From the NCBI GenBank assembly GCA_965285935.1, contig OZ260663.1, positions 102,982,001 to 103,046,000 on the forward strand: 64,000 bases of DNA, in the 5' to 3' direction. Each line of letters starts with the position of its first letter. The stretch's first letter is position 1. A program made the translations under genes and the position numbers. This stretch comes from Ophelia neglecta (Eukaryota). Positions 4,220 to 56,674 of this stretch are shown piece by piece. A model generated the notes under the pieces. The model ran no database searches. It saw only the letters and a program-made list of their open reading frames with translations, and was not told where the DNA came from.

Positions 4220-4681
4220 CGGCTATAACAAAGAGTCAGTAATCAGGGACGATTTAGGGCAATGATTTACATTTAGGAGGTGGATCTAGGGGCAATTCCA
4301 TAGGGTCAGTAATCAGTGTGAATTAAGGGCGATGGTATACATATAGGAGGTGGATCTAGGGGCTATAACATAAGGTCAGTATTTAGGGAGAAGTTAGGGC
4401 GATGGTATACATATAGGAGATGGATCTTTGGATAATAGCATAGAGTCGGTAATAAGAGAGGATTAAAGACAATGGTATATATCAAGGGGGTGGATCTAGG
4501 GGCAATAACATAGAGTCAGTATTCAGGAAGGATTTAAGGGTGATGCTATAAATACAGGAGGTGGATCTGTGGGCAATAGCATTGAGTCAGTAATCAGAGA
4601 GGATTTAAGGCGATGATATACATCTGGGAGGCGGATCTAGGGACTATAGCCAAGAGTCAGTAATCAGAGAGGATTTAGGGG
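4220..4681. repeat. Diverged ~70-bp minisatellite, about 6.5 copies
   Basis: GAGTCAGTAATCAG...GGAGGTGGATCTAGGG recurs at about 70-bp spacing (4234, 4304, 4374, 4443, 4513, 4583, 4654). Confidence 0.85.
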
Positions 4682-5269
4682 ATGTCAACTACTCAGATGG
4701 AAGTGAGATAAGAAAGGATGGAATTATCTGAGGCGAGGGTAGTTTGGTAAGAATAAGAGCGAGTATGTGGGGTGCACTGTTTTAAGGAGACTAACATGAG
4801 AGGTTGTCGGGGATGATTCTAGGCGATTGGGGTATCGGAGGTGCTGTAAATGGTGGACAAAAGGATGGTAATATCTTGAAGAGAAAAGACAGTATCCAAC
4901 TGTGTAATAACAAACCTGTATAAATCCAGTTCAGGGTCGGTCCTTGTGATAACATTTGTTAATATGATCAGTAGGTGTCACAATGTAACATGACTATCAA
5001 TGGTCACCAATTTCTCTACACCAAAACTATACTCGTTTACATTTAAAACAAGGAGGATAGGGCGAGGTTTTCTATTGCTTTTAAGATAAGACAGAGGAGA
5101 TGTAATCCTTAAATGCAATGCCAATCCTAACGTAATATAATAGGCGCAGGAGATTAATGCTGAACAAGGGGCTCAAATTGCCAAGCTGAAGCGAGGGGTG
5201 GCCGATGGGGGGGGGGGGTCTTTGGCTATTCATATAGATGATTTATTTGTATTTCCTCATTTGAAATTT

Positions 5270-6967: not shown

Positions 6968-7396
6968 GCATGCCATGGTGTAGATTGTATGTGTTTATGT
7001 GTCCTTGCATGCCATGGTGTAGATTGTATGTGTTTATGTGTCCTTGCATGCCATGGTGTAGATTGTATGTGTTTATGTGTCCTTGCATGCCATGGTGTAG
7101 ATTGTATGTGTTTATGTGTCCTTGCATGCCATGGTGTAGATTGTATGTGTTTATGTGTCCTTGCATGCCATGGTGTAGATTGTATGTGTTTATGTGTCCT
7201 TGCATGCCATGGTGTAGATTGTATGTGTTTATGTGTCCTTGCATGCCATGGTGTAGATTGTATGTGTTTATGTGTCCTTGCATGCCATGGTGTAGATTGT
7301 ATGTGTTTATGTGTCCTTGCATGCCATGGTGTAGATTGTATGTGTTTATGTGTCCTTGCATGTCATGGTGTAGATTGTATGTGTTTATGTGTCCTT
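6968..7396. repeat. 39-bp minisatellite, 11 near-perfect copies
   Basis: Unit GCATGCCATGGTGTAGATTGTATGTGTTTATGTGTCCTT; 429 bp = 11 x 39; one substitution in the last unit. Confidence 0.97.
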
Positions 7397-7666: not shown

Positions 7667-10600
7667 ATGGATGGAGATGTGGAAGTCTTGGAAGGGCTTG
7701 TCTCCTCCTCCAGGGACACCAGGCAACACAGGTGAGTAGGGCGATTTGAAGCAGGTATGTTCAATGTTTATATACATAATGTGATTAACGTATATCTTCT
7801 AGAATCACAACATCAGTGTTTTATTGTCTACATTCGTCTTTTTATTCAAATATAAAACAGTGAATCCTTATTCAGTTTGTTACAATACACCAAATATTGT
7901 TTTATTTTTTTATATTTAATTTAGTTTTATTTATAAAAGTGAATTTTTTTAAAACGTATCTTGCGGTTTATGTGTTAATTTGCCTATGTAACCTGGGCTC
8001 TGTATCTGAAAGCGGCCTTTATCTCTTAATCCGATTTAAATCAGGCTTTAAGATCTTAATCAGTGTAACTTTCTAATCGGGGTTTCTGGAAGCTGGCTTT
8101 GGGCCAAAACTTGGCGATTTTTGTCTTAAACTTAATCCTGGTCAATGGAAACAAGGATTAATGCGCTCTCAGCTAATCGCTAATTGGTTAATTTAATCCA
8201 AAAATGTAATACCGCGTCTAGAAACAGCGCCTTGGAAGTAATTGATCAATGAATATTGTCATTTAAATTATTCAGGGTTATCAGACTATCGAATGGATTG
8301 ACTGTACTACTCATTTCAAATATGGATCGTAAATCTGATTCCGGGGACTGTACTACTAAAAAAAAACACCATGACGACGAAATGGAACTAGGAAAGAAGA
8401 AGTTATCTAATAAGGTGCAGGGGATAAACGAGAAGGATTCCGAGGAATGTGGTGATACCCCAGCGAACAATTATACGCCAAACAACGGAAAGCTGGTAAG
8501 GCCTTTAATTGTCGTTATACTGACCCATTGGTATGAAGCAGAACTGAATGGTACTTTATGTCAGTCAGTTCGTCATATAAATTCAAATTCATAAGAGTGA
8601 ATGTTAGGAATATTACTAAGATAAATTTCTAAAAAATAGCTTAAAGTTTTTCGCGAAATTTAGACTAAGGGCGTCACTTTTAAGGACTTTTCTATGAATT
8701 AACCATTCTAGCGAAATATAATTTGAAAAACAACACATAGTACTAACCTCCAAATTAGAAGGAAAAAAAGGTTGAGACAGAAAAATGTACTTAGTTTACA
8801 AAACTAGACGTTTTCTTAAGTCGCTTATTTGCTAATTTGCCAACTTGTCTTCAATAAGACATAAATCATTTATATTTTTTTTACATCGAACACAAGCATT
8901 GTATTTTATACAATATATCGCAAACACAGATATTCACGTTTATTCTTTGTCTTTCCAGTCGGCGGCAGCATTGTGTGTTGGAATTGGGAGTTATGACGAC
9001 CCGCCAGATATCCCTGGACTTTCACACTTTCTAGAACACAGTGAGCAGCCTTAATCTTTTGAAGTTTAGTGCTTTAAGATAGTTTTGTCGTGACGATAAA
9101 GTTAATAATGTCGTTATTCTCCGTACTTAAAGAATCGAATAGTTGATTCCTAGTCATAGTTTTACCGTAGGTGGCGCTGTTTTTTGTGTTGTGTATGGGT
9201 GTCTATGTATGTGACTGCGTGTGTGGGTGAGTGGGGGTGGGGATAGGGGATGGATGGGGGGGGAGGTGGGGGGGGGGGGAGTGAAAGTGTCATTTACGGG
9301 GGGGACGAAGGTGGCTAGGTTGTTTGTTGTTTGGGGTATTTACGTGGCTTTCAACACTTATCGGTCATATCGCCACGGTGCCTACTTGTGACGGTGGGCT
9401 CAATGCCCTCTTTAGAGTGCTGCCTCACTGGAGTACCTGCCGTAGACAGACAGGGAACCCCACCCAGTCACATTATACTGACACCGGGGTGACCAGTCCT
9501 GATACAACCCCCGAAATACCGGGCGCCTGGCAGGGGAGCTATCAGTACCTATTTTTACGTCTTAGGTTTGACGCGATCGAGCTTCGAACCCCGATCTCCC
9601 ACTTGCGAGGCGGACGCCCTATGTGGCTAGGTGGGAAACCTGTAGTGGGTTTGGTTGTACAGACAGGTGGGCGCGTAGAATTAGGTAGTTGGCCAGTTGG
9701 GTGTGGACATTTAGAAGTCATTTTTCTCGCGAGCCATCATTAATTTAATATTTCTCTAATTACTGTTAAAATTGAAGTTAATGATTATTTCATATAGTGA
9801 ATACGCATCTCCTTTACATACATTAGAAACACGATAAATATGCCTAATAAATTTGGTATCTGTGAATAAACCATTTGTATACTATGTATATGATGAAAAT
9901 ATATATTTTCAATTGCCAGTGGTGGTAATGGGAAGTGAGAAGTATCCGGATGAGAATGATTTTGATGCCCATGTTAAGAAACATGGAGGGAATTCGTACG
10001 CGCAGACAGGCATGGAAACGGTGAAACAATATTTCTTATGTGTCTTTTGTCATAGAACACGGCTAATGCAGTTTGTGCTGGTAGTGAAGAAAATAAATGA
10101 ATAATATCCGAAGAAAAATCTGGGCAAATAAAGAAATTTACGAAATACCCCTCTTCATCTTCAACGACATATTGTTTTCACCATGATTTATAGAAGGAAT
10201 ACGCGGATATTTACATTATTAGCTATAGGTGTCGCACGGAGGACTTAACAACTGTACTTATCCTTCAGACGACATTTCACTTTGCCATTAAGAGGACCGA
10301 ATTCAGCAGCGCCTTAGATAGATTCGCTCACTGCTTTGTCAAACCTCTCATGAAGCAAGACAGCATGGCTCGTGAAATAAAAGCTGTGGATAGTGGTAAG
10401 TTTATTCGGCTGTTCTTTCTCATTTGGTTATGCATTTCGTGTCCTTGGAGAGTGGTTTTATCATCACTTTCGTGCTCAGTAATGTTGAACGTTCCGGGGT
10501 TCTCATATTGTATACATTAAAAAAACGAAACTGGACAAGCGACAGACAAAAAAGCACCAGTTCTTTCGCTAAATCTGTCCTCATACATCAGTAACTCCCA

Positions 10601-13600
10601 CTTCGCTGGCTAACACTCATCAATCCCTAGTTTAATAATATAAAACAAAATTAGATTTAATAATAATTTTTTTCATTTTTATGTGAGAATAATAAGATTT
10701 AATAATAATTTATTTCTAATTTTTATATGTGAGTGGTAGTCAATATTTTTTCCGATTATTTATTTTCCAGAATTCGATATGCGTCTGACATGTGACGATG
10801 CACGTCGTGAACAGATTCTTGGAAGTCTTGCTCGGCCTGGTCACCCTATGAGGAAATTTCCGATGGGTCAGTATGAGCAATTTGGGGTTATATATCAGAC
10901 GGTTATATAGCCCAAAATACCCAGTTCCTGCCATACGCTCTTGAATTGAAAGTAGAAACGGTTAATTAGCGGTATAAATTTAAATTACTGCTTGGCATAT
11001 TAACGACAAAAGAAAAAATCGGTCAATATAATATCCCAGTGACTACCTAACAAAAGCCCATTCATATGTTGTTTTGTTTCAATTGAAAACCTAGGTAACA
11101 TAAATACCCTGGAAATAACCCCTAAAGAGAAAGGGATTGACGTTCACGCTCGTCTCCATGACCACCGTCAAAGGATGTATTCCTCTCACTACATGACATT
11201 GGCAGTCGAAAGTCAAAGTTAGTGTTCAGCTGTTCCGTATGTCAATGCATCTCAGCATAGTCTCTTATTGTTATTGTTATAATTGCTGATTTTGCGATGT
11301 CCAATGCATCATAAATGAATGGCCTTGTAATTTGTTAGAACTATATTAATCGGTCGATGTGTGTCGCCCATAATAAATAACTTAATCCCCATCGAAAGCA
11401 GTTTAATAAAAACCCAATGTTTGATGATATTTAAAATATATAGTGTAATTCAAAGAATACATGAATCAATTCTTAATCATCTCAATATTATATATATCGA
11501 AACATTCATGAACGTGTTTTTAAAGACTCTTTGGATGAACTAGAGAAGCTGGTAAAAGAGATATTTACACAAGTCCCACACAAGTAAGACATAAAACATT
11601 TGATCATTGTACATCTTTCATTTGAAATTATCGTGTGGTGTTTCTTGCTATACACAATGTTGTTGTATGTAAAAGTAGGCTTCATCTAAACAACACATAG
11701 CAATGTGGTACCATTTAAATAACAATTCTTAATCATTTCTCTTTCAGCCATATTGACAAACCAATGTTCGCACATTTGGAGGTAATGCTAGTATACTGGG
11801 TTATTGACTCGAATCATTTCTACCCTGAGCGTCATGAACGAATTATTTTAACCGAAAGCATACGCCTTACAATTGTCTAACATGCTATTATCATTGTAGT
11901 AGCATGGTGCATTATTTATTCATATATATTAACCAACTGTGTTGATGTCAATTCACCTTGAATATATATTCAAGAATCGTGGTGAACATGATCAGAGTAT
12001 TAAGCATTAACTCCGTATCAAACTGGTGCTCTGTGTCACATGATAATGTCTTGTTATATTATCCGTTCACACCTTCTGACACTGTTTAAACATTGAACAA
12101 AAGATGCATCATTATCAGAATAACTGAATATCTTCTTATAGGACCCTTTCGACACTCCTGAATTCTACAAGATGTACAAAGGTGAGCTGCAATTCACTTA
12201 AAATAATCAGAGTGTAAGACGAAGCTTTGTCAAACTAACCACACTATCATAACATGATCGCTTTGACGAGCACTAGCGAATGAGAGTGCCGCCTTCGATT
12301 GACTAGTGTGAGAGGCCAAAGAACTGCCTAGTGTGAGAGGCCAAAGAACTGCCAACAGGAATCATATATGATTCTTTTGAGGCATAGAAGTTCATATTCC
12401 CTAGGATTAATGTCAACATTCTAGTAATGATATTTATTACCCTTACTGCCATATATCTTAGAATGATATGCCCTCGTGTGTGGCCAAGACAGGAACGGAT
12501 ACCCGTCCGAAGAAGACAAATACAGTGAAACCTGCCTTAAATACCACCTGTTTAATCAGACCACCTGTCAATTCAGATCACTTATATTTAGTCCATTGTG
12601 TAGACTTTCACTGTACTATAACCTGCCTACACAGACCACCTCTATAATCAGACCAGTATTTCTCAGTCCCTTGGGTGGTCTTTATGTACAGGCTTTACTG
12701 TACTTGTTCGAGAATAGTATATCAAATTGCTCGGAAATTTTCAAGGACTGTCAGCTGCTGACCAGCTAACACGGTTCCCTAGTTACAGTACCGTTAAAGC
12801 GATAATAATGAATTTAAGGAGAGTAAACCAACTAATAAATCTGTTATCGGTTGCTATGATAAGCAATCTACACTTTCCCATGGTGTGAGGACATTGCCTT
12901 CAGAATTTTGCTTCGCCAAACGTAACTTCAGTTAATCATACAGCAATTGGGCCTTTCCCTGCAGAGAAAAAAAACACCATCATCTTGCTTTCTAAAGCTA
13001 TAATGGCGTTAGACAAACGATAGTACTCTCTTCCTCCAGACTTTTACGTGCCATAACTTGCTTCAATGCTTTTGGTCATTACGCTGCGAAATGAATGCTC
13101 TAGCAGATATTATTAATATTTCATAATAGATAGTAATAGTCATGGAACAAAACTTTAAGCATAATCAATCTGACTTAGATATAAACTATTTTCCAGTTGT
13201 GCCGCAGAAAGATGTTGATTCTGTGGAACTGAACTGGAGTGTTCCATTCCATTGGCACCATTACAGGTATGCCTTGTACTAAAACATGAATACACGGAAG
13301 GCCTGTCTAAAGTCATAGTAGGCAGTCTGAATTAATTACAGGCAGTGTCTGTCGAAAATCTGATCATATTACAGGTTAGCATATCTTACAATAGAAATCC
13401 GTCACATAGCGAAATGAAATGTGATGAAAAAATCTTCGGGAGCAGAAATCAGTAATCAAATTGGAGGTGATATAATGCAAGCGCATACAAACGCCTGTAT
13501 TACCTGCAGTTAAGTACAGTGCCCCTGTAGATCAGCTGGTGCAGCCGGTGGCTTTAATATGCTAAGCACAAGAGCAACCATTTTGATCAGTTCTAGTCTC

Positions 13601-16600
13601 TTTGCTGATGCAGAACCCTTTTAGATTACATTTGAACACTCTTTTACATACCTTTTTTTGTTGCCGGATTTTAAGGTATAAAATCAAAACAATGTATCGT
13701 TTTTGTATGATTTTGTAGAAAGCAACTGTTTTTATCCTAAGAAACCCCGGTGGATATGTCTCATGCATGGAATGCCTAGTCGGTGTCTGGTTTGCAATGT
13801 ACGAGGACTAACGAATACTGCAGTACGAGATATCAGTGATACCCCGCAAATCTATCCCTAATCCCCCAATATACTCCCAAATTTCACTGAGACCAATTTC
13901 CAGTAAACAAGAGAACAAGTTTGGTGTGAAAGTTTAATAAACTGTCCCGGTAGATACGTCGATATATATAATGTGACCCCAGGTTATGACCCTGTTATCT
14001 TCAAATGGATTTCTGATTTCTGTTTTCAAAAGTTTAACGATTTAAACTGACTTATGTGATGGATTTCTGCAGTAAATCTGGTTGTGTTACAGATAAGATA
14101 TATAATAAATTAATTATTTTACATTCTTTGTGTCATTGACATTACGAAACCTCTTGAATAGCATAGAAGGATCTTAAAGAATGGCATAACGTGGTCAAGT
14201 GCAAGAGTCAGTGGGTTAATAAAATACATTAGCATAAATATTATTAAATTCTTGCTCAAACCACCGAATGAGTGAATCATAATATAGGCCTTGACTTGTC
14301 ATGAGCTGAGGGCCGAAATTGTTATTTCGAATCGAGTCATTGTGTCAGGTGGTAAGGTTGTTTGTGGACGGTAGTTATCGAGTAATGGTACGTTATTAGA
14401 AGTTGCTTAAAATACTTTTTTCTTTTGTTATCAATTTCCTTTTGCAGGCTGAAACATCTAAACTATTTTCATTGGCTGTTGGGGCATGAAGGGAAAGGAA
14501 GCGTACTACAGTATCTAAAACAAAAGTATGTACATACTGACAGGATTGATAATATCTGGACACAGAGCATGATACCAGTGTTTGTTAGTTCCATTTGTTA
14601 TGTTTCCAATGGTTTTGACGCTTCAGAAGGCATCGAACATAATAGTTGAAAGAAATGTATCTTATGGCTTTTTTTTAATAATTCGAGGCATAGTTTTGCA
14701 TATTATTCAAATATCTCAATCGATTTAATTAGTGTGGCGGTGTTAAGTTATCATTTGGCAACCAAGTAAAAAACACAACATCATGAATCAAAACTACTTT
14801 TTTAAAACATTGTCAAGAATATTTTTGGATCAGGCTATGGGCGACACAGCTGCTTGCTCGAAATGGAGCAGAATACAACCGAATGTGGACCTGCTTCTCT
14901 ATGGGTATTCTTCTTACAAAAGCTGGAATAGAGAACCTGGCGCAGGTAAAATATTAGTTAAATTCTAGTCACTTAAAGGAATGATCGCATAACAACTATA
15001 TTGGCTTGGGATGATAAGCTGTCATGCCCCTTTTACGTGATTGGGTTGCTATCAGTAAATAGTGTACATGGACAAGAGTCCTGCTTTGAGCATTAAGTTT
15101 TGCAAGAAATGCTACATTTACACAATATAATTCAAAGTGACATATAGGATTCGTATATAACTTAACATATATATTTGGGGGAGATAACACTTGCATTAGC
15201 TAGGTACGAAATCAGTTTATACCGTATGATATGACAGGCATAACTCTCTTTAGTTTAATCGTATGCTCAAAACTTATACAAATAGGTGATTGAGGTGGTA
15301 TTTCAATACCTGAAGATGCTGTGTCTGATTGGACCACAGGAGCGCATATACAACGAACAAAAAACTGTCGCAGAAAACGAATTTGAATGGCTAGAACAGG
15401 TACATAGAACTACTAATTGTTATAACCCATTACGATCATGAATAAAAAGTCTTCTGTCGAGAATTTTAACAACAAGTATCTCCAGACGGACATGATTGTG
15501 ATTATTTGATATACTAGGCCAATGCGTTTTCTTCAAGCCTCTAGGAATATTCACCAATAACGGACAAAAAACCGAAAGTTGTAATCAATAACATTGCCAT
15601 TCTAAAATGAAATAATCGCCCTCAGTCATGGGAACCAGTGTCGACGGCGACGAGTCTTGCTTCTTCCTGTGTCCTTTTAATGATTAAGATTATTAAGTGG
15701 TCTTTTATGCTTATCTTTTGAATGGATTAATTTTTTTTTATCTTGAAACTAAATTGAAGCAAATATAGCTCAATACATGACATCGGATGATCCACTATAA
15801 GTCTGTATGCTTTCATGTGGTGGTTGTCCCGCTACAGTTTTAAAACCAGCCATGGCCGTGTCAATGAAACCATTGACTAATTGGGTCTCGTCTGCGTAGT
15901 GGAATAAAAATGGTTCATGCATATGCGCTATTGCACATATAATTAATGAAACTGACGTTCAAATTGTACATATTCATTGCTTCTTACTAAAGCAGCAAAC
16001 TCTAATATACAAGGAAGGACTGCGTTTGAGATGAAGCATGCAAGTCACTTTGACAAAATGTGCGGAGCGCTTATAAATGGCATACCATTATACCATTGCA
16101 TTAAGTGAATTGCAGAAATCCCTCCATGATACTTATGTTATGCTTGTGTTATTGTTTGGTTACCAGTATGACTCCATTCATTACCTCACCATGTTATCTG
16201 AGAACATGCAGCTCTACCCTGTGACCGACTACCTCACAGGGCATACGATTCGTGACACCTACAACCCTAAGGTAAGCCAACTTCGACATTCCGACCAAGT
16301 TGATACAATACACGGGGGCGGATCCAGGGGGGGGGGGCTCAGGGGGCCTTCCCCCCCCCCCCCACACCAACCATTTTTTTTCTCACAACAAGCCCATCTA
16401 GGCGCCCAAAACATGGCAACTAGATGCATGTATGTACCCACCCAAGCTTCTTTGCCCCCCCCCCCCCCGCTTTTCGATTCCTCCACATGGAGTGAGCCCC
16501 CCTCCCTGGAAATACCTGGATCCGCCCCTGATACAGAACACATGTGGAACTGCTTCTATTTCAAATGTTGTAATAAGCCGCCCATGGTTAACATTATAAT

Positions 16601-19600
16601 GAACTTCCTTGGATCCTTTTTATGAACCTAGTACTTTGACAGCTGTTTGCCGAACTTGCCACTTCTTTAATGACGCGGTTAACGCCACAAAGGGCCAATA
16701 TATACATACAATCCAAAAGCTTCGCCAAGGAGTTTGCCAATAAGGATACACTAAAGGAATCTTACTTCGGGACGGAGTACACGGTTCAAGGTAATTCAGT
16801 CGAAGGAGAAACATTACTTTTTCGGACATTTCCTGTCTGTGTTTTTATAACCTAATAATCCATAGCGCGGTGTGTGATATCAACTGGGATACCTATCGAG
16901 ACTGCTGTGTATCTGCCCAAAGATGTTTTTAAATTGGTTATCTATTAAGAGTTTCAGCGGGAAGCATTATTACTAAGCCCCGCATCCATTTGCAAATTAA
17001 ATTAGCTTACTAATTAGTTACATTTATTACTTTTAACAATGTTTTTTTTATTAAGATCATCACCAAGTTCTTTTTGTTATATTGGCATACATGGCTTATT
17101 TAAATACGTATTTATAAGATCTCTTTGATTTAAAATCATGGCTTGTTTCAGATCTGCCGAAAGATTGGCTTGAACTGTGGAAAAGTGAGCAGGCAAAAGC
17201 GGCTTTTTAATCTCAATCTGAATTATCCGACGGAAAATAAGCTATTACCTTTGCAAAACGTACAATTATCATAATAAGATTCCATTATATTTTCTAGACG
17301 CTGAGACCAATAGCCAACTTTTTATACCAAATCCGAATGATTATATTGGTAATTGAATTTAGTACCTTGTTTCACCCTACCTGGCATATTGTTTTACATT
17401 AGAACACTTAGTGGTATGAATAATAGTTACCGCTAGTAGTAACATTTTTATTATATAAGATTATAGCAGAGGGCATAAAACCCTAAAATTTGGTTTCTGG
17501 TTCTTCAGCGACAGACTTTTCGTTGATTGAACTCGAAGACCCCATTCCAAAGGTAACTCGCAGCAATGTCATTGCTTTAACAAACACAGTTGCATACTAG
17601 CTAATTTAAGACCAATTTGAACACACATGTATTATTTAGGAAAATAATATGCCATTCATGTCGAATGCTTATTTTGAATGCGATATCTCACACACATCAG
17701 CATGTATTATTTATTCATTAATCATTAGGAACTAGGGTTTTAAACAATGCAAAGGAAATTATTCTTTTTATTGGGCTTAGTTTCCGGTGCTGATCAGCGA
17801 TGATAACCACGGCAAACTTTGGTACAAACCTGACAACAAGTTTCAAGTCCCAAAAGGTAGGCTTTTCGGCTCAATTCGTAGGGTGTTATCTACGCTTCTT
17901 GATTATTTTGCCTTCATGTTTTTTTTATTGCAATTTACTCCATTCTGCACAATAGGAAGTTCGACATTACATGACCGGTAAATCGGTCTTGATAAATGCA
18001 CTTTTGTTTTATCTATTCAGTTCCACATTATATATAATCACCGACCGTTAAGGAAAGGCCGTCTGAGACATTTATTTCAATTTCCCTTTAGTAAATCATG
18101 TATGCCAAAGTTCGCTTGACCTAAATCTAGAAAGTGTTTGTTCTTGCAGCCCATTTGATGTTTTCGCTCACCTGTCCAAGTATCAACATCTCGGCTAAGA
18201 AGTATGTGAGATTACTTTCTTAGTTTCAATTTTTATTCAACTCAAGCTCCAGCAGGAGAATAGAGTACAACCTATACATTGTTTGACAAAGAAAGCAACG
18301 TAATAAATCACAAGTTACATATAATCCACCACAGAGGTTCGTTATATTACATCGCTAAATGAAGATAGCGAGGCTCTTCTCGCGTCTTACATCCTGCAAT
18401 AACTGTTCTAATTTAAAACACGGGAACGAACACTCGGCAGACAATTCAAAATCTTTAATCAGTTATTATTGGTTACATCCGAATGCATCGGCAAATGTAA
18501 GCTGCATAAATTAGAACGTTCCTGGTCAAACGTTTTATAGTCTTGATGAAGGTCCATTGGGAAAGCTAAAAAATAGAATTGTCTTTTTAAATCCAGCCTT
18601 GGTATGATGTTCATTTACCGGACACTCTTGGATAGTATCTTAGCCGAGCACACTTATGCTGCGAATATTGCAGGGTTGAGGTGAGTTCGCTTAGAATACT
18701 GCATAAGTGAAAAAATGGGAGTGGATACATTGCGGACAAAGCAAAGTGATTATTCAATCATAGTCAGATCGGTCAGAAATCACCAGGAACCAGCAGCGAC
18801 ACGTCAACATAATCAATCCCCAGCCCACAAGCAGTAAATACAAAAATGAAAACAAAAAATTGATACTACTTGCATTAAGAAGTAGTCAATAATAGTAGTT
18901 TTCCATAATGCGAGTCAGAACACAAAACAAATGAGTCAGTGAAACCACCATGCCAGTTTGTCATAGGGCCAAGGCTTATTATCCATATAGTAGCTGCTAC
19001 AGTAAGTGCTAAGCCCAATTGTCTTTCAATAATAGTACCATGCCACCCTTTCACACTTAGCGAAAAGTCTAATCATCCTAGTGGTCAACTTATCAAGAAA
19101 TTGTCACGTTACATAGCAGATATATAGCCCCTCCCCATACCAAAATGGTAATATGTCTAAATAGGGCTAATACGTCTTAGCTTTTTTTGTAAAAATGAAA
19201 AGTGTCTGAAACATATCTTGCACGCAAACGCGTCATGTCACTTTTAAATATGCTTCCCATTGTACGAAAGATGTACCAAGTTCAAAAAGACTCGCTTGAA
19301 CATCTGGTGTTTTTGTTCGATTAAATCGCAAGATAACTGATCGGATTCGTTATCAATCATATCTCTGTATAGGAAAAATCCTATCCGTAGTAGGAGGACA
19401 CATAAGTGGCTTGATGGTAGTAACTAAATGCTTAAGATGGGTTCAAATGGAATCTTCACGAACAACCAGTGTGTTTTATTCGCATGAACTGTACAAAGTG
19501 ACTTTTATTTCAGCTTCTATATCTCTTGGACAGGGAGTGATTTCATTTTAAGTCTCAGTGGTTTTAACCAAAAGTTACAGGTTAGTCATTTTTATGATGT

Positions 19601-22600
19601 AACAACTGACGTTGTGGTTTAATTGTATTTTTATCAAAACAAGAAGGTATTATACAAGGTAACTGATTGAGGTGTTCCCCTGTTTCGTCAACCCAAAGCG
19701 TGACTAAGTGTCTGTAGAGGCGTTTGAGTCTATGTGTGTAGTAGACGAATTTAACAACTCCCTGTGAAAAAGTATAGCATTGGGAGGACTTGCAATAAAC
19801 AACTTTGCTTCAGCCTCATTACATAATATAGTTCAATGTACGCAGGTGCTCTTGGAAACATTGGTAGATACAATTAGCGAGTTTGAGGTTTCCGAGGAGT
19901 TGTTTACAGCCATGAAGGCGGAAGTTCGAAGGTCATTGTTTAACTCTTACCGGGATCCTTCAACGCTTGCTGAGTAAGTGCGTCCTTTTTAGTGTAATCA
20001 CCTGACGGTAAGTTGAAAGGTAATGGCTTTATTGACACGCAGTGCAATATATATGAATCGGATACTGGCTCATACTGATCAAAGGTCAATGAAGAATGGT
20101 CGAATGCCAAGTAAAAAGAAATAAACAAAGAATACGAACAAAAAGGGAGATTACTTTAGGAATGGCTATTCATATACGCTATAGGTTAACCCTTAATAAT
20201 TCATGACTAAAACGATGTACCTTTCAGGGAGATAGGCATGACCATCTTCCAGCGGCCATATTGGAATCCACTGTTCGTACAGCGGGAGCTACATTTGGTG
20301 ACCCGCGAAGACCTACTTGCTTTCAGCGGTGATTTGTTTCACGGCGTGTTTTTGCATGGCCTTGTACAGGGAAATATTGGCCCTGAAGAAGCTCGGAACA
20401 TGAAGAATTATATCATTTCAAAACTCGGCTGCACATTTTATCAAGGAAAAGAGCTACCCGAGGTAAAAAGTATTCTCGCCAAATTCCCACCTTGCTCTAA
20501 TATGGATAGATGTATTTTGCAAGCATTGTGTCATTTCATTCTCTTATGGTTAAAATCGACAGACACCGTTTTGACTCGTTTGTTGTTTTATGGATTTATT
20601 AGAAACGTACCTAATCTCTCTAATTAAAGGAAATATTTTAACACGCAAATTTAACAATAAATGAACGTATACGAGGTGGGGGTGGAGGCGGGCAAGATCT
20701 GGAGAAGGTGAGGCATAACTTATTAAAGAAGCAGGTGGGAAATGTGATATTTGATAGACATTGATACATGTGAAAAAAGTGCTTTGTAAATGGCCAATGC
20801 TGAGAACCTCATTAGTGAGTGAGCATAATGGTCCAGACTAATTATTTTGTGTCAATCTAAGTTTTACCCAAATAGCACTTTTCTTTGCGTTGCCCCTATC
20901 GTGCTTAACTACTCTCCTAAACAGTTGTTTAAAACGACTGTTATAAATGATTGCATCACTTACGAAACATGAATTATCTTATATACCCACCAATAAGTGA
21001 ACTGACTCTTAATTTGCTAGATGTACTTTTGCGAGACATGTAGCATACAACTTGTATCCTACACACAGGTTAAGTTTCCATTTGCACTTTTTACATAGGT
21101 TTTATGTACCCAACTACCAGCTGGAACGCACTATATTCGAGTAGCAAACCTGAATCCCGTGGATTGTAATTCTGTTCTGACAAATTACTATCAGTATGGA
21201 CAGGGACACATTCGCCAATTTGTTCTTAATCAACTTCTGATGGTAAGGTATTGCCATAGTCTAAACCGTTATAACATGAAATAAATGATTTTTTTATTTA
21301 TTAATTATAGTGCTTGTGCGATTGTGGCTGTTGGTTCCTGGTTATTTCGGACGGATTTGGTGGACATTTCTCATTTTTTGATTTTGCTCTCTCTGCCGGG
21401 TATGAATTCCTGGCATATAAATATACAGAGAAACCTGCCTCAAAGACCACCTCTATATTCAGACCACCTATTAATTCAGACCGCTTATATGAAGACCATG
21501 CCGTGCATTACAACTTAAAATAACCTGTGTAAACAAACCACCTCTATAATCGAACCAGTATTTCTGCAGTCCCTATACATCATGGTCCTCATATTAGTGG
21601 TCTGAATTGACAGGTGATCTGATTGTAGAGGTGGTCTTTAAGGCAGGTTTCACTGTATTTTATTTTATATTCTATAAAAGAGGACACGGTCGACGTGCCA
21701 TCTTGCGGGAGTGGATGCCAGGAAGGCAATCCAAAATGACTTAATCACTCATTTAGAATTATCCATTGAATCGATTAAAAATATCAATCCCCTGTTCGTT
21801 AATTTTAAGTAAGCTCATAGAATGGAAACCCCTAATGCCATTTATCTAAAAGCACAAATGAAATAAAATCCTCTTCAGTCACCGGAAGCTTATAATATTA
21901 TATCAGGTTTGTTAACACGGAAACCAAAACTGATTTGGCTCTAACGATACGAATTAGTGTTTGGAAATGGAAATAGAAAAGCTGTGAGGTCAACTATTAA
22001 CGAGACGAGCCATTTAACTCTATAAATAACATTCCATCTCTGTCGTCATGTTTATACATAATTTGCATTATTCTTCTGATATTCCAGGTTAAGATTCAGA
22101 TAATATTTATTCATTCATATGGCAATACTTATTGATAGAAATATAATAGTATATGGAGTCGATATTGTTAGCAATAAAAGTTGAAATTTTAACAGAATAA
22201 TACGAATATTTGAACTGGGAGACTCTCACTAAGTATCAATTAGATACGCTAGCGTGAGAGCAACCCTTTGGAAGGTTTTGTAGCTGTTTAAGATTAAAAC
22301 ACCTCGCATAACAAGGTATATTACCATTAGGCCTAAGTATAGTCTTAGATATGAATATAATTGTGCTGATGATGTCAAATTCGTGCTTTTTGTAAATAAA
22401 GGGACCTTGTAATTGATGTTTGAAAGATTGCAGCTGACGGTTCCTGTTTTGGACCAATTTAATTGGATATTTTTTAATAATGATTAAAATGTCTTATCTG
22501 TCTCATATCTAATGATTAAAATGCCTTATCTGTCGGGTATCTACTACCAGTCCGATATTACCTTCTGCTCAGCTTCATATGAACGAACCTGTCGTAAGTA

Positions 22601-24828
22601 ACCTGAGGACCCGGGAACAACTAGGCTCTGAAGTGCGTTGTGAGGTGGAAATCATCAGTGGTATACTTGGCTTCTCAATAACAGTAGAGAGCCAAGCCAA
22701 CAAGTTCAGGTACTGTATTAATAGGGGATTTAGGTCCCGTACGAACAATAAAACCTGTATCCGGCCTTTTGACTTCCTAGTTGGGTTGCCGGCACGGTTA
22801 TCGATCAGACACACATATATATATATATATACTTTGTTCGTCAACTTGACTAATAACATGTGACTATTTGAATCTGAATAGATAAAGCCTGCTTAAAGAG
22901 GCATCAGTAGTTTTGTCAGTGGTATGACAAGTGCCATGAAATGTGCGCCTTGCAGTATAGATGACAATGCTCTAGTCGAAATTAACCCAAACTTTATCCG
23001 CCTTGTCTAAGGTTTGGACAAAATGACAATGGATATATGGTATAGACAATTAAGTTTTCCTGACCTCTATTTCTACACCTGTCAAGTACAGGAAGGTGAC
23101 GTTACTGGTTCACACCTGTCAGAGTTTGCATAGTATGGGATTAAATTGGACATATTCTAGCATCTGCAGTATATATTGTATAGCGTCATCCATTTCCCAT
23201 TTGTAGATCAATTAACCTTTTAATCATTTAAAATTCTTACTGATCACCCTGTCACAGTATGGATGAGATCGATATTGCGGTGGAAAACTTCTTAAAAGAG
23301 TTTGAGACAGAGCACATTCACAACCTTTCAGAAAATGACTTTCAAAGTCTGGTTAGTACCTAAACACATATATACATCCAAATGGTAAAAGTTAAGTCCA
23401 TTTACTCTGTTTACTACAGACAACATTATGATACTACAGTACCATGGTGTTTGTGACAAGGTATACGTTGGTTAATATTTCCATATTATACATTGCCATA
23501 ACCATATTTAACCAGACTACACAGAGTCTTACAGATATATTCATATGCGTGTCCTTATGCGTTGAATTATAAAGAGTCTAAACAATGCAAGCAATATTAG
23601 CAATGTTTCACGTTTAATATTTTAACGTTGTTCAGTCTCTTAGTAGATCAAGGACATTATTGTTCAACAGTAAGTAAATGTAACCTACTAACAATGTACA
23701 AATGAACAATGTTATTATTAAATATATATAAGAATTAGCAATGTTAAGGGTTGAAGATATCGGCACAGTTAACGATTCATTGGCCTTTTAGGTCAATACT
23801 CTGATGACTCTACTACAGCGTGAGGATCTTAATCTCGAAGAGGATTTTGATAGAAATTGGGAAGAGATAAGGCTGAAAACCTTTCTCTTTGATATTACGG
23901 AAAGACAGGTACGCCTTAGCTATGGTAATTTATGATAGATTCTTATAATAAGGTCATACAATAAGAAGACCTGTGACATGCAAATATGTTGGCAGAACTG
24001 GGCGTCAAACAATATTAAAAGACCAGCATAATAACTAGTGTGACAATATTCATGGTACGCATCACGTGGTGCTTTGGTAATAACCTGCCACTGGAAAAAC
24101 ACCAATACAATTGGTTATTGAGTTAGTAGGGGGAATGTGTTTTGCCCTTTTTTCTAATCTTGCAAGGTTAACTTTTCGCTGCAGTTAGAAGCTCTACAAA
24201 GCATCTGCTTGAGGGACCTGCAAGAGTGGTTCAGGTACCTTTTGTCGTCTGGTGGTCATGTCAGAAAGCTCTCAGTGCAGGTGAGTCTATTGACCAGACA
24301 AGAAAAGAATGTTTACACGAATGGGTTAATCGTAATTATAAAAGGAAATTATAATGAATCCAGGTAAGCAGGGGTCGGATTTTACAATGCCTTTTAACAT
24401 TGCAGATTTTGATCGCAAACAATGAATATACAACTAGTTGCGTAGTTTATATGTAAATGTGTTAGTGTTAACATCTGGGTGCTTTCATAATCGGTTTAAA
24501 ATACTAATGTGCAGGAGTTTGTCCCTGTTGAATTGTTAGTACTTTTACATTTATAATCGAAAAAACAAAAATACTGCTTTGTTTATGGTATGATATATAT
24601 CTGACCTTGTAGTCATTTTGGTCATCGCAGGTTGTAGGTAATCCGAATATAAGTGGTACCTATTCCACCGACACTTATACTACTAACACTGATGATATTG
24701 CACTGAACTCACAGCAGGTGGCGCTTACATTCGTTGACGTTGAGCCTGACATCCGAGACAGCGCCATCTATGACATTGATGAGTTCCGAAGAAAAAATGA
24801 CACGTACCCAGTTAGCCGAATCATGTGA
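7667..24828 (+). CDS. NRDC: Nardilysin-like zinc metallopeptidase (M16A/insulinase family), 31 coding exons, 1042 aa, open reading frame intact
   Basis: Exons (all GT-AG, phases consistent, sum 3129 nt): 7667-7731, 8276-8495, 8959-9040, 9920-10020, 10269-10395, 10771-10866, 11095-11217, 11526-11583, 11748-11781, 12142-12181, 13197-13266, 14448-14525, 14834-14945, 15286-15399, 16167-16271, 16643-16790, 17152-17184, 17298-17348, 17509-17552, 17781-17856, 18150-18201, 18597-18680, 19514-19580, 19846-19973, 20228-20462, 21099-21242, 22573-22709, 23258-23351, 23792-23908, 24185-24280, 24631-24828 (TGA). Motifs: RVIRLSNGLTVLLIS, SAAALCVGIGSYDDP, HFLEH (HxxEH), MGSEKYPDEN, REIKAVDSEF, LLGHEGKGS, LWYKPDNKFQVPK, LRTREQLG, RKLSVQVVG. 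The insert between LLIS and SAAAL sits at the nardilysin acidic-domain position. It may be a divergent paralog rather than the orthologue. Confidence 0.92.
9321..9622 (-). mobile_element. tRNA-derived V-SINE-like element
   Basis: Near-identical to the reverse complement of 54063-54384. 10-bp TSD GTGGCTAGGT at 9311-9320 and 9623-9632. (AAC)n-like tail. Confidence 0.85.
12523..12700. mobile_element. Tc1/mariner-type MITE
   Basis: TA-CAGTGAAACCTG ... CAGGCTTTACTG-TA, with internal AGACCACCT repeats. Confidence 0.7.
16313..16530. mobile_element. hAT-like poly-G/C MITE with a 5-bp TSD
   Basis: C(G/A)GGGGCGGATCCAGG TIRs; ATACA on both flanks. Confidence 0.7.
21426..21655. mobile_element. Tc1/mariner-type MITE, same family as 12523-12700
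   Basis: TA-CAGAGAAACCTGCCT ... AGGCAGGTTTCACTG-TA. Confidence 0.75.
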
Positions 24829-52300: not shown

Positions 52301-54637
52301 ATTCTTACTTTGAAGGGAATCTGTCGTGAATTGCGACTGACAGGAAGCTTCCCAGAGTGCACAATAGAGGGACCGTCAAGCTCAGGCCAATATAGAAATA
52401 GGAGGGGCTGAAAAAAAATGTATTTGATATTAAACGCTAGCTAGAAAGGCTGGCATTTCAACCTGGGTGGGTAAACAGAAGCTGTCGCGTGTATGGTTAT
52501 CATCCTGAGTCGTAGGTGGTGGGTCTCGCTGTGGAAGGGGTAGGAAAGAGTACAGGGAGAGTGAACGTTATCTCAGAGCGTTATTTTCAGTATAATAATG
52601 AATGTCGATGAATGTGTCCTCCTTTGTATATATAGTGTTATTTTAGTCGAGGCAGCCTGGAAAATAGTTAGTTTCTATAATGACCTTTCCCATCAATTAT
52701 TTTTTTCAGATTTCCCTAACCAATGGCACATTTCCCGCCAAGGGTTTGATTTCGGAACCTCCAATTGCACACACGTACCTAAAGTGTTTGGAAGAACCCC
52801 CGCACCTGGAAATAAGGCTACTTCTTTTTTTTTCAAAATAGGTCGGGCCACAACTGGATTTTGAATAACACACCTATTTGCACGAATTATTTTTCTCCAG
52901 AAGTTGGGAAACAACATTTTTCTCTTCAAATATGACGAATACTATATTCCTAAGAATTCTTCTATTTGCATAATGCCAATAACGTTGTTTACTCACTGGC
53001 GTAACGCCGATGGCAGAGTTCACAAAAGTACTATATACTACTCACGGGTCTTTGAAGGAGAGTTGGAGGTAAATGTCGGCGGCATACATCAATGTCCACA
53101 TGAAGGTCACTCCATAAACGTACTGGTTGTATGCCTGCAAATACACAGTGACAGGTTTAACTGTAAATACTCGGCCCAAACAAGTCTCCAGCACCACCTC
53201 GACACCCCCCCCCCCCCCTCCTGTAAAAAAACCCTATTATATTCCCCTCCGCTAAGCAAAGGTTGTAGAAAAGGACAATAGGGAGCATCTCACCTCGACT
53301 ATATAGCCGAAGGTTAGCGTGACGTCACTGTGGAGCGCTGGGGTCCATATGTCGTTTGTTAAGTTGTACTCCGGGGGGCCAGTACACAGCATGGCAACCG
53401 CTCGGCCGATCACTCCTGGCCAAATAGGAAACTTTATTAACCCGCGAAATGCGATTATATATTCAGCTGTAACAAACAAATTCTTTTAATATTGTCTGTG
53501 TAATATGTATTACCAAGATTGAAGAAATCTTTAAAATATTGAGATTACTTCGTAAGATTGAAGTAGTTTTTATGCAATATACATTATGCAATGTAGAATG
53601 CTACTTTATCTACAGTGAGTAGTATACCTGCGCATGCCAGGACGTCCGCCACAGCGAGAGAGAAGACTACTAGTGGGTTCGGACTCGGTTTCCGACGCTG
53701 TTTGTATCCAGTGAGCAGGGGGCGCCACCTAACAAACAGTGATACAAAAGCTATGAAAAAATGTCCACTGACAGAGGGCGACTCCATAGAATAGCGCCAT
53801 TTCAAACAATCAACAAAGGGTTGGTTTAAACATAATCAACAAAGGGTTGGTTTAAACATAATCAATAAAGGGTTGGTTTAAACATAATAAACAAACAAAG
53901 GGTTGGTTTAAACATAATCAACAAAGGGTTGGTTTAAACATAATCAACAAAGGGTTGCATGTATGAGAAAAACTACATTGATAATGAAACGGAAATAAAA
54001 ATTGCAGAGGATTAAAGATTTTTTTTAAATCTAACACCCTGCAAATGTCGAAGATATTATTTCCTTCGCGGACGAGTGGTAAGGGTGTCCGCCTCGCAAG
54101 TGGGAAATTGGGGTTCGAAGCTCGATCGCGTCAAACCTAAGACGTAAAAGTAGGTACTGATAGCTCCCCTGCCAGGCGCCCGGTATTCCGGGTGTAGTAT
54201 CAGGACTGGTAAACCCAGTGTCAGTATAATGTGACTGGGTGGGGTTCCCTGTCTGGTGTCTACGGCAGGTACTCCAGTGAGGCAGCACTCTAAAGAGGGC
54301 ATTGGGCCCCCTGTCACAAGTAGGCACTGTGCCGATATGACCGATAAATGTTGAAAGCCACGTAAAACCCCAAAAAACAACAACGACTCGTGAACTAATA
54401 CTGTACTACTATGTTCATACTAGAATAATACAGACGCACTTACGTATCAGTAGAACACATTTATACTTACATGTGTATTATTGTTTATTTATATTCTTAC
54501 CTATACACCTGCCAGAGGCCTCCGAGCAGCCCGAGGGAGGCGAAACCGATACACAGCCCACAGTATATCTTCCGTTTATCATCCGGGAGCTTGTCCTCGG
54601 GTATACAGAAGAACGCTGCATCCTGCATAGACGCCAT
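46373..54637 (-). CDS. GPR143: GPR143 / ocular albinism type 1-like GPCR, 9 coding exons, 330 aa, open reading frame intact
   Basis: Exons on the minus strand: 54637-54501 (MASMQDAAFFC..LCIGFASLGLLGGLWQ), 53728-53628 (SLAVADVLACAG), 53415-53294, 53134-53046 (QYVYGVTFMWTLMYAADIYL), 52407-52309 (TM4), 51535-51456 (CAGG..IFHYLFNYL), 49992-49887 (GIVSSHNQ..RKFLAVVFIFTIC), 47031-46929 (WIPNVID), 46528-46373 (AVLNPLQGLLN, TGA). Phases are consistent and the exons sum to 993 nt. Seven hydrophobic segments match recalled GPR143 motifs (MASP..FC, DLLGCLG, YAVDAY, HYVTMY, CWLSN, ILNPAQG). Confidence 0.85.
48067..48209. repeat. Long palindromic (foldback) element, possibly Crypton-derived
   Basis: Arms 48075-48119 and 48159-48203 match 39/45 as inverted repeats; centre CGAGGCCGGTAGGCCGAG. 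Confidence 0.75.
48408..48572. mobile_element. Tc1/mariner-type MITE (second family)
   Basis: TIR CAGTGGTCCCTGC(G/A)ATGTAGG at both ends; TA on the right flank. Confidence 0.65.
50438..50957. mobile_element. Academ-like non-autonomous element (TAG...CTA termini)
   Basis: TAGTCT ... AGACTA ends with nested inverted repeats (GCCAAGTGCC/GGCACTTGGC; CGGCAACCTTCGG/CCGAAGATTGCCG). GC-rich against the surrounding intron. TSD not exact. Confidence 0.45.
51735..52133. repeat. Degenerate (ATATTACCT/GATATTAC)n simple repeat
   Basis: Many ATATTACCTAT units. Confidence 0.85.
53808..53956. repeat. 26-bp minisatellite, about 5.5 copies
   Basis: Unit AATCAACAAAGGGTTGGTTTAAACAT. Confidence 0.9.
54063..54384 (+). 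mobile_element. tRNA-derived V-SINE-like element, near full length
   Basis: A-box-like GAGTGGTAAGG, B box GGTTCGAAGC (54112-54121), V-domain-like GTCAAACCTAAGACGTAAAAGTAGGTACTGATAGCTCCCCTGCCAGGCGC, and an AAC-rich tail. Confidence 0.85.
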
Positions 54638-55114: not shown

Positions 55115-56674
55115 ACCGGGGATGTTAAATCTGTACTCAGTGTCAGAGCCATGCGAGCGGCGAACTGAACTTTAATTTGTTTATCAGTAGATTACAGCCC
55201 TGAGGCGTACAGTACATTGACTTTGTGTAAAGGGCGAAATCGAAATCTGGGGCTAAAGCAGCATTGGCGTCTTAATATCGGTTACTATGAACATTATCTT
55301 ACCCCAAACCTAGCCAATTTATGCACTGGACAAACTTGGGATCAATGCGATAAGATCGGGTTATAAAATGACAGTTATTTTAATCTTTTTTTTTTGCTTA
55401 TAATGCGGCTTTGGCCATAGATTTTCCTTTTGCCGTTTACAGAAAGCCGGTACATACCAGATTCAGGTCTCCTGAATGGGGCGCTTCACATAATGTCAGG
55501 TATGGATGTCCGCGATATAAATGTTGCACATCCAAATCCACTCTATGACCTTATCTAGAGCGCTACATGCATAAATGGCGTCTCTCCACTTGTCAAATAA
55601 ATATTATAGCCTTGTTATTCCTTTGAAGATAGCCAGTTCAAGTAGTTGTAATTTCATTAGTACTGAAAAGACCATAGGTCCATGGTACACATACACATAC
55701 AACATGTTTTGATGTGTAGGTATTGTTGTCATTACCGACTTGAGATATTTATTGACTAGTACTCAGTACCTTCGAGAAAGCCCGTGTTTGTCAATCTGCA
55801 AGCCTCGTCCTGAGGTGTCGGTAGTGACTGTTATTATCTGTAACTCGGTCAGGTACGTCGAGGACTAGAGTTGTTGACACGTCTGTGTACACCAGTGTCA
55901 GTGTAAACATCTGCTGTTAATAACAATTATAAACATGTCAAGGGAGGAATGTATTGTATGCCAAAGAGGATTAAAATAAATGGACTCGGATGTGTGGTGG
56001 TCCTTGGGGGTTGGGGGGGGGGGATTGCAGGATGGATTGGGGGGGGGGGTGTCAGGTTTGAGTGTAGGGTGGAAGGGCGGGGTGGGCGGGTAAGGTTTTA
56101 TTTAAGGCTTTCGTGTGTGTGTGTGGGGGGGGGGGGGGGGGGTACGGAGGTGTCTCGTGAAACTAGGAAGTAAAGGGAGGGGCTTTTAAACACAAGGCCA
56201 ATAGGTTGGGTTGCTCGAAAATATAACGTCTAAAAGCGAGGACCTATAGCTTCAAAAGCGGGGTTCTAAAGAGAGGAGCATACTGGTAGGGTAAATGTAG
56301 GTGTGGATCCGTTGGGAAGGGAATCTAAAACTTGAGGTTAATGTTTTCAGGAATAATTGTCCTATAAGTTACGATATAATCATTGTTATGGATAAAAGTA
56401 TCATTGTATCTTTGTAAGTATTATATGTTGGTTGGGGAGGTGGAGCATTAATATCTGGCTACGAGTTCTAAGCTGTGTCCATGAACTGTTAGGTCATGGA
56501 AACACTTTCCTTTGACAATGGGTCCGCATAACCCTCTCCTCCCTTAAACCAGTCAACAATAACGTTACGTGAGCGATTTTATGGCGGTGAATAGTCATTC
56601 ACCATAAAAAGTCGCAATAGAAAAGGATATTTCATTGAGAGTGGGACAAAGGATACAAGTTAAGCTAGTGGTCA

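Follow-up and report, generated by a model that had tools for sequence, protein, structure and literature searches.

A nardilysin-like paralogue with an intact zinc site and a substituted catalytic cleft in the multi-copy nardilysin family of Ophelia neglecta

Nardilysin (NRDC, N-arginine dibasic convertase), a peptidase of family M16A, cleaves N-terminal of Arg in dibasic sites. In the sections of PMC12731061 used here, an R/Y pair in domain 4 is defined as an M16A feature that completes the active site, the Tyr being thought to stabilise the transition state, and mutating the R or the Y of the pair is stated to abolish activity in M16C enzymes. Extracts of further sources report that R824A and Y831A lower the rate of IDE (PMC8836115, citing others), that an inhibitor bound at the catalytic site touches F820 and R824 (PMC4580987), and that Asn139 and Phe820 are among the zinc-cavity residues (PMC8869475). 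In mouse cells, some effects of nardilysin depend on its peptidase activity and others do not, and a non-catalytic role has a precedent, since inactive mouse nardilysin still supports part of target-gene expression (extracts of PMC5665917). Against this background, we describe a nardilysin-like gene in a 64,000-nucleotide stretch of the Ophelia neglecta genome (GCA_965285935.1, contig OZ260663.1, positions 102,982,001 to 103,046,000, forward strand; hereafter the window). The gene keeps its zinc site and has lost residues of the catalytic cleft that are retained by other copies in the same genome, the canonical copies, and for the most part by an intact sister gene. We give about an even chance to the reading that this paralogue, one product of a birth-and-death expansion, would be both catalytically impaired and dispensable, purifying selection having maintained it until recently.

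An earlier, sequence-only reading of the window had placed 31 exons without a lesion at 8959..22709; the intact frame and the exon number stand, whereas those positions cover exons 3–27 only and the true span is wider:

7667..24828, + strand: nardilysin-like gene, 31 coding exons, 3129 nt, 1042 residues, intact in the assembly

In this model, built from exon coordinates, all 30 introns are GT–AG, there is no internal stop or frameshift, and the phases of the 31 exons match those of the sister gene and the canonical copies. The product is collinear end to end with 176 homologues, as a single chain of 1042 residues like the four-domain M16A members, and is ~41–43% identical to named nardilysins, with its nearest database relatives at ~43%. 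Pfam domains were checked on one homologue (P0087); single exons 25 and 26 of the window gene gave no Pfam match, a homologue search with exon 25 found nothing, and exon 27 gave only chance matches against PDB. Against 1.84 billion representatives, searched with single exons and not with the whole spliced protein, exon 27 had 22 matches, none of them close; in the 18 with a motif recognisable by pattern, the column of IDE Y831 holds Tyr or (once) Trp, and Ser in none. Judged by its grouping with nardilysins and a gene structure common to the canonical copy, the gene is a nardilysin by descent.

The zinc site, the cleft and the neighbouring substrate-binding features lie as follows, with IDE numbering taken from the alignment of P0087 to chain 3qz2_A (E = 6e-173; chain position + 29):

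8276..8495, + strand: exon 2, where nardilysins carry the acidic stretch; degenerate, with 12 D/E and 11 K/R in 58 residues
9025..9039, + strand: HxxEH zinc motif (HFLEH; IDE H108, E111, H112), kept
9925..9927, + strand: Val125 (codon GTA) replacing Phe (IDE F115), specific to the window gene
9997..9999, + strand: Tyr149 (codon TAC) replacing Asn (IDE N139), specific to the window gene
10003..10005, + strand: Gln151 at IDE F141, a column variable among nardilysins (canonical Phe, sister Cys)
10395..10772, + strand: distal zinc ligand Glu199 (IDE E189), kept, ~76 residues past HxxEH; codon 10395/10771-10772 split by intron 5
14859..14861, + strand: Arg374 replacing Gly (IDE G362, exosite strand 359–363); Gly in 173/176 homologues
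22594..22596, + strand: Val837 (codon GTA) replacing Phe (IDE F820), common to the sister gene and hence older
22606..22608, + strand: Arg841 (IDE R824, R/Y pair), kept
22627..22629, + strand: Ser848 (codon TCT) replacing Tyr (IDE Y831, R/Y pair), specific to the window gene

Thus, the R/Y pair of domain 4 is broken, with Arg841 kept and the Tyr replaced, and both zinc-cavity residues Asn139 and Phe820 are substituted. F115 is counted here as a further cleft-lining residue. In the canonical copy the acidic stretch N-terminal of the zinc motif holds 27 D/E and 6 K/R in 75 residues; in the window gene it is no longer acidic, and it is short in some invertebrate homologues too. Exon 13 is 9 nt shorter than the canonical exon, a 3-residue deletion beside the exosite strand. 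The motifs and codon positions given from the letters (HFLEH, the distal Glu, TAC, TCT and the Val codons) all proved correct, as did the IDE numbering given with them.

The substituted positions are among the most constant of the family. F115, N139, R824 and Y831 are invariant in 176/176 full-length nardilysin homologues and F820 in 175/176 (one Tyr), a set from which 3 of 179 matches were dropped for length and which, as top matches to canonical queries, is biased to conserved proteins and misses divergent paralogues. The high conservation claimed for these residues therefore holds, and their substitution is not common among these nardilysins. Of the four named changes all are real, with F115V, N139Y and Y831S specific to the gene and F820V shared with its sister. 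The exon-4 codons are covered by genomic contigs from runs X2 and X3 and the Ser codon by those from X1–X3, with no differing letter; assembly error is thus not the source of the substitutions, with the caveat that the sample may be the one used for the assembly. These observations bear on the explanation that nothing unusual is present—that the locus is misassembled or wrongly modelled, or is the sole orthologue with clade-typical changes. The nearest database relatives are only ~43% identical, so that close kin are unsampled, which leaves such an account some room; we nevertheless hold it to be extremely improbable, given that the exon phases agree with those of the sister and canonical copies, that reads confirm the codons and that all four residues are present in the canonical copies of this genome.

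Searches of the genome itself with exons 4, 25 and 27, PF00675 and DNA found at least 13 nardilysin loci, every one of them on contig C5; six have intact frames and seven are broken or partial, and 13 is a lower bound. The canonical clade, with exons mostly 94–100% identical, F, N, F and Y kept and a strongly acidic exon 2, has four intact copies at C5 1.46, 1.96, 2.24 and 3.01 Mb. A further canonical copy at 1.69 Mb has exon 13 interrupted by low-complexity sequence, and partial ones lie at 1.07 Mb (exons 1–13, 70 kb examined), 2.41 Mb (exons 17–31, 50 kb) and 101.70 Mb (exons 2–5). Seven near-identical canonical copies (four intact, one interrupted, two partial), differing in intron size, thus cluster at C5:1.06–3.06 Mb, and in several of them short repeats of the 3′ part of exon 27 follow that exon. 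The derived clade comprises the window gene, the intact sister (C5:94,290,900–94,308,200, − strand; 31 exons, 78% identical to the window gene) and three truncated duplicates (93.49, 100.59–100.62 and 102.04 Mb), which carry only exons 1–3 and 11- or 12–14. The latter lack the equivalent of window 9.9–12.8 kb, and two also lack 16.1–40.5 kb; since these two continue into window 40.5–56 kb, they are segmental duplicates with large deletions. The truncated duplicates are ~8% diverged from the window region in non-coding sequence, and their remaining exons have no stop codons (ratio of nonsynonymous to synonymous rates, ω, ~0.46; p = 0.06 versus 1).

The M16A phylogeny that had been suggested was made as a quick tree of 42 proteins, without bootstrap or IDE outgroup: the six own copies included form one clade (100% by the Shimodaira–Hasegawa-like approximate likelihood-ratio test), within which the window gene pairs with the sister. 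The window gene is consequently a paralogue and not the sole orthologue, given the canonical copies with all four residues in the same genome. The database nardilysins nearest to the canonical copy are ~49–50% identical to it, with P0087 first, followed by hemichordate, brachiopod, annelid and lancelet proteins. A separate IDE-like gene with an intact zinc motif lies at C1:98.44 Mb. Elsewhere we noted an MPP-beta-like gene at C1:104.06 Mb, also with an intact zinc motif, and two weak M16 matches on C2 and C8.

Comparison with the sister gene divides the changes into an older and a younger layer. Common to both genes are F820V, D143G, W220M, the 3-residue exosite deletion and the lost acidic character of exon 2, while the sister keeps F115, N139 and Y831 and carries F820V, F141C, G339E and an altered exosite strand. 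The window gene has lost 9 of 161 conserved columns (≥90% conserved in 36 non-redundant homologues, with the consensus kept by the sister and the canonical copy), and four of the nine belong to the 14 columns assigned to the cleft or exosite (p = 0.004); the other five (Y21H, F178C, V447L, L468I and E924D) lie outside the contact list. This suggests that losses cluster at substrate-contact sites, as had been claimed, on a list that in part goes beyond cited residues; with the cited zinc-cavity list alone (PMC8869475, plus the zinc ligands and Y831), the clustering claim falters, at 2/6 (p = 0.07) for 95% and 2/9 (p = 0.08) for 90% conservation.

We then estimated selection with a codon model of our own (F3x4, 984 codons, exon-2 insert removed). 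The branch values of ω were 0.31 for the window gene, 0.17 for the sister and 0.13 towards the canonical copy, with no significant difference between the window gene and the sister (p = 0.28); the pairwise ω of these two was 0.23 (dN, nonsynonymous divergence, 0.11; dS, synonymous divergence, 0.49; likelihood-ratio test, LRT, 188 versus ω = 1). With the truncated duplicates as a close outgroup over seven exons (245 codons), 5 nonsynonymous and 10 synonymous changes were fixed since the split (2 more unpolarised), giving ω of 0.16 (p = 0.0004). With these values (0.23 for the pair, 0.16 after the truncated duplicates had split off), the gene is not an old pseudogene. The sequence-only reading had named a dN/dS of about 1 without expression as evidence against its proposal of a neofunctionalised paralogue, and the estimates (0.16–0.31) lie far below that value. 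Neofunctionalisation in the sense of positive selection fared worse: a branch-site test found none on either derived branch (LRT ~0; five sequences, low power), and ω does not differ from that of the sister. The branch-site null places about one third of sites under relaxed constraint on the window-gene branch and likewise on the sister branch. A neutral frame of this size would stay intact (95%) under ~0.6–0.9% divergence, as estimated from stop, splice and frameshift targets and an indel rate measured against the truncated duplicates. Both the truncated copies, at 8%, and the frameshifted version described below, which already carries the Ser and differs at 11/771 to 13/195 letters, are more diverged than that. 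Because purifying selection outlasted this neutral-frame lifetime, the gene probably still had a use when the residues were lost.

A frameshifted version of the gene also exists. Three runs (X1–X3) of one sample hold the locus as genomic contigs with introns covered, and these show two indels absent from the assembly:

22647, + strand: 1-bp deletion in exon 27, in contigs of 3/3 runs
after 23331, + strand: 1-bp insertion in exon 28, in contigs of 3/3 runs

The idea that the −1 and +1 shifts compensate each other was rejected, as they yield no open frame: whether one indel is present or both, translation meets its first stop at codon 865. The intact state is ancestral, because the assembly frame matches the exon lengths of the sister and canonical copies. 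The same contigs carry the deletion and, 18–20 bases away, the Ser codon, so that Y831S is the older of the two. Around exons 29–31, assembly-identical contigs occur beside a version differing at 11/771, 11/264, 13/195 and 8/273 letters; among the 14 coding differences listed, nonsynonymous changes outnumber synonymous ones by 10 to 4, which is near neutral. The frameshifted version has ~2x the depth of the assembly-identical contigs in X1 and X3, depth not being a copy-number measure, and it may be a second allele or an unassembled duplicate. A supposed deletion allele of exons 4–10 (joint 9898–12821 in contigs) was discarded, being explained by the three truncated duplicates in the assembly. 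A broken version of the window gene thus already exists in the species, and together with the three truncated duplicates it points to a dispensable copy in turnover.

These data raise the alternative of a young pseudogene or relaxed duplicate, in which function is gone, the substitutions are drift and the assembled copy has simply not yet acquired a lesion. The two frameshifts in the reads, the 7/13 loci already broken or partial, the near-neutral differences among those listed between versions, the relaxed third of sites (the same in the sister) and the loss of six residues at ≥95% conserved columns against one in the sister (p = 0.125) all fit this account. It is harder to reconcile with ω of 0.16 since the split from the truncated duplicates, with a Ser that predates the deletion at 22647, and with a lesion-free span of <0.6% divergence, too short for three or four contact-site hits by drift; we consider it unlikely. 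Were the copy decaying, it would be an ordinary birth-and-death duplicate in a segmental-duplication region and of little interest.

For the reading of an impaired paralogue, we propose three steps. First, the derived clade would have remodelled the cleft, exosite and acidic stretch through the shared F820V, D143G, W220M and exosite deletion. Second, the transition-state Tyr and the Asn next to the substrate strand would have disappeared from the window gene alone; judging from IDE and the presequence protease, this loss would sharply reduce turnover. A missing Tyr hydroxyl, a bulky Tyr in place of N139 and an exosite strand with an Arg are together predicted to cripple turnover and probably binding too, making the "peptide trap" raised by the sequence-only reading less likely than a scaffold-type role or narrow residual activity. 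Third, selection would have protected the fold and surface, for a binding or scaffold role as in mammalian nardilysin or for a narrow residual activity, while at least four canonical copies, the sister and the separate IDE gene would have taken care of peptide cleavage. The protein is accordingly pictured, by analogy, as predicted to fold and bind zinc, yet to cleave peptides weakly or not at all; the role kept by selection was likely non-catalytic or narrowed.

Much of the same evidence could be read as an active peptidase with new specificity, its cleft and exosite reshaped and its catalysis relying on the zinc centre together with Glu111 and Arg824. The zinc ligands are all present, as are the general base and R824, the cleft and exosite were remodelled stepwise through the sister lineage, purifying selection is evident, and MPP functions without the R/Y pair (in the sections of PMC12731061 used here). 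Tyr831 is, however, a catalytic and not a specificity residue; the bulky Tyr at N139 and the Arg at G362 would more likely block binding; the branch-site test, low in power with five sequences, found no positive selection; and a frameshifted version exists. We regard this explanation as possible, if rather unlikely, for the window gene. The sister, with N139 and Y831 kept, suits it better and is more plausible as an active enzyme whose specificity has changed.

Several observations weigh against the impaired, once-maintained paralogue that we prefer. The retention of H108, E111, H112, E189 and R824 fits a still-active enzyme, as a catalytic site freed from its task need not keep them. On the window-gene branch, a whole-gene ω of 1 is rejected only at p = 0.023, and the canonical outgroup is saturated (dS 1.8). 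The 245 dated codons hold none of the four named sites, so that we infer the order of residue loss relative to constraint. To these are added the 10:4 ratio between versions, the five of nine lost conserved residues that lie outside the cleft and exosite, and a contact list of which part (F115, A140, E182, Y150, F202) stands on general background and not on a cited source, and which was compiled once the changes had been seen.

A bolder form of the same idea is that selection maintains a novel type of M16A pseudopeptidase, with the zinc site intact and the transition-state Tyr, cleft Asn and exosite Gly lost, which would trap peptides or, as a non-catalytic partner, tune the canonical nardilysins. 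We think this doubtful, and quite unlikely as it stands. If it were true, the gene and its sister would form a natural two-step series from enzyme to pseudoenzyme, separating the catalytic from the non-catalytic roles of nardilysin.

On the − strand of the window, at 28.6–36.8 kb and beyond, lies a TRAF-like gene with a MATH-domain piece (E = 2.5e-5) and a TRAF zinc-finger piece (E = 9e-4), both matches being under the Pfam cut-off; it is deleted in two segmental duplicates, and at the sister locus no TRAF match was found in the 80 kb examined. An 808-residue open frame on the + strand (56669–59095) matches RVT_1 (E = 6e-34), is non-LTR retrotransposon-like and has no stop within. A high-copy interspersed repeat of ~300 bp with very high read depth occurs at 9310–9620 and 54075–54385, and its copy in intron 3 (9310–9620) is absent at that place in the truncated duplicates. 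Upstream of the nardilysin-like gene are tandem arrays at 1088–1404 (43 bp), 4221–4684 (70 bp) and 6968–7396 (39 bp; 11 copies, 99% identity).

Taken together, the locus is real and represents an unusual variant of a known family, seen in one genome and with signs of turnover. Our literature search, with most subscription journals and the bioRxiv supplements outside its scope, found no report of a nardilysin paralogue combining an intact zinc motif with a lost R/Y Tyr. The canonical, half-remodelled (sister) and fully remodelled (window gene) copies offer a natural series in which to ask which residues and surfaces each role needs. With nardilysin itself, the window gene shares whole-length homology, HxxEH, the distal Glu, R824 and an insertion at the position of the acidic stretch; it differs in F115V, N139Y, F820V, Y831S, G362R, the non-acidic stretch and the 3-residue exosite deletion. 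IDE (insulysin; PDB 3qz2, 2jg4) is the closest solved fold for the family and the source of both the numbering and the mutational evidence; it keeps F115, N139, F820 and Y831, and its counterpart here is the separate gene on contig C1. A lineage-specific multiplication of nardilysin is described in extracts of PMC4961791 for attine ants, with 8–17 copies against one in outgroup ants; that expansion is independent, and the likeness is one of copy number. In the part of the pseudopeptidase review PMC11266112 used here, MPP alpha and the complex III core proteins are named for M16 and nardilysin is unmentioned. These proteins keep the M16 fold with catalysis lost or reduced (PMC11266112, PMC12731061, sections used here), but they are M16B subunits that lose HxxEH itself, whereas the window gene keeps the zinc motif and loses second-shell residues. 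In this it resembles the M14 pseudopeptidases CPXM1 and Ecm14, which, as tabulated in PMC11266112, likewise retain the zinc motif and have lost second-shell residues.

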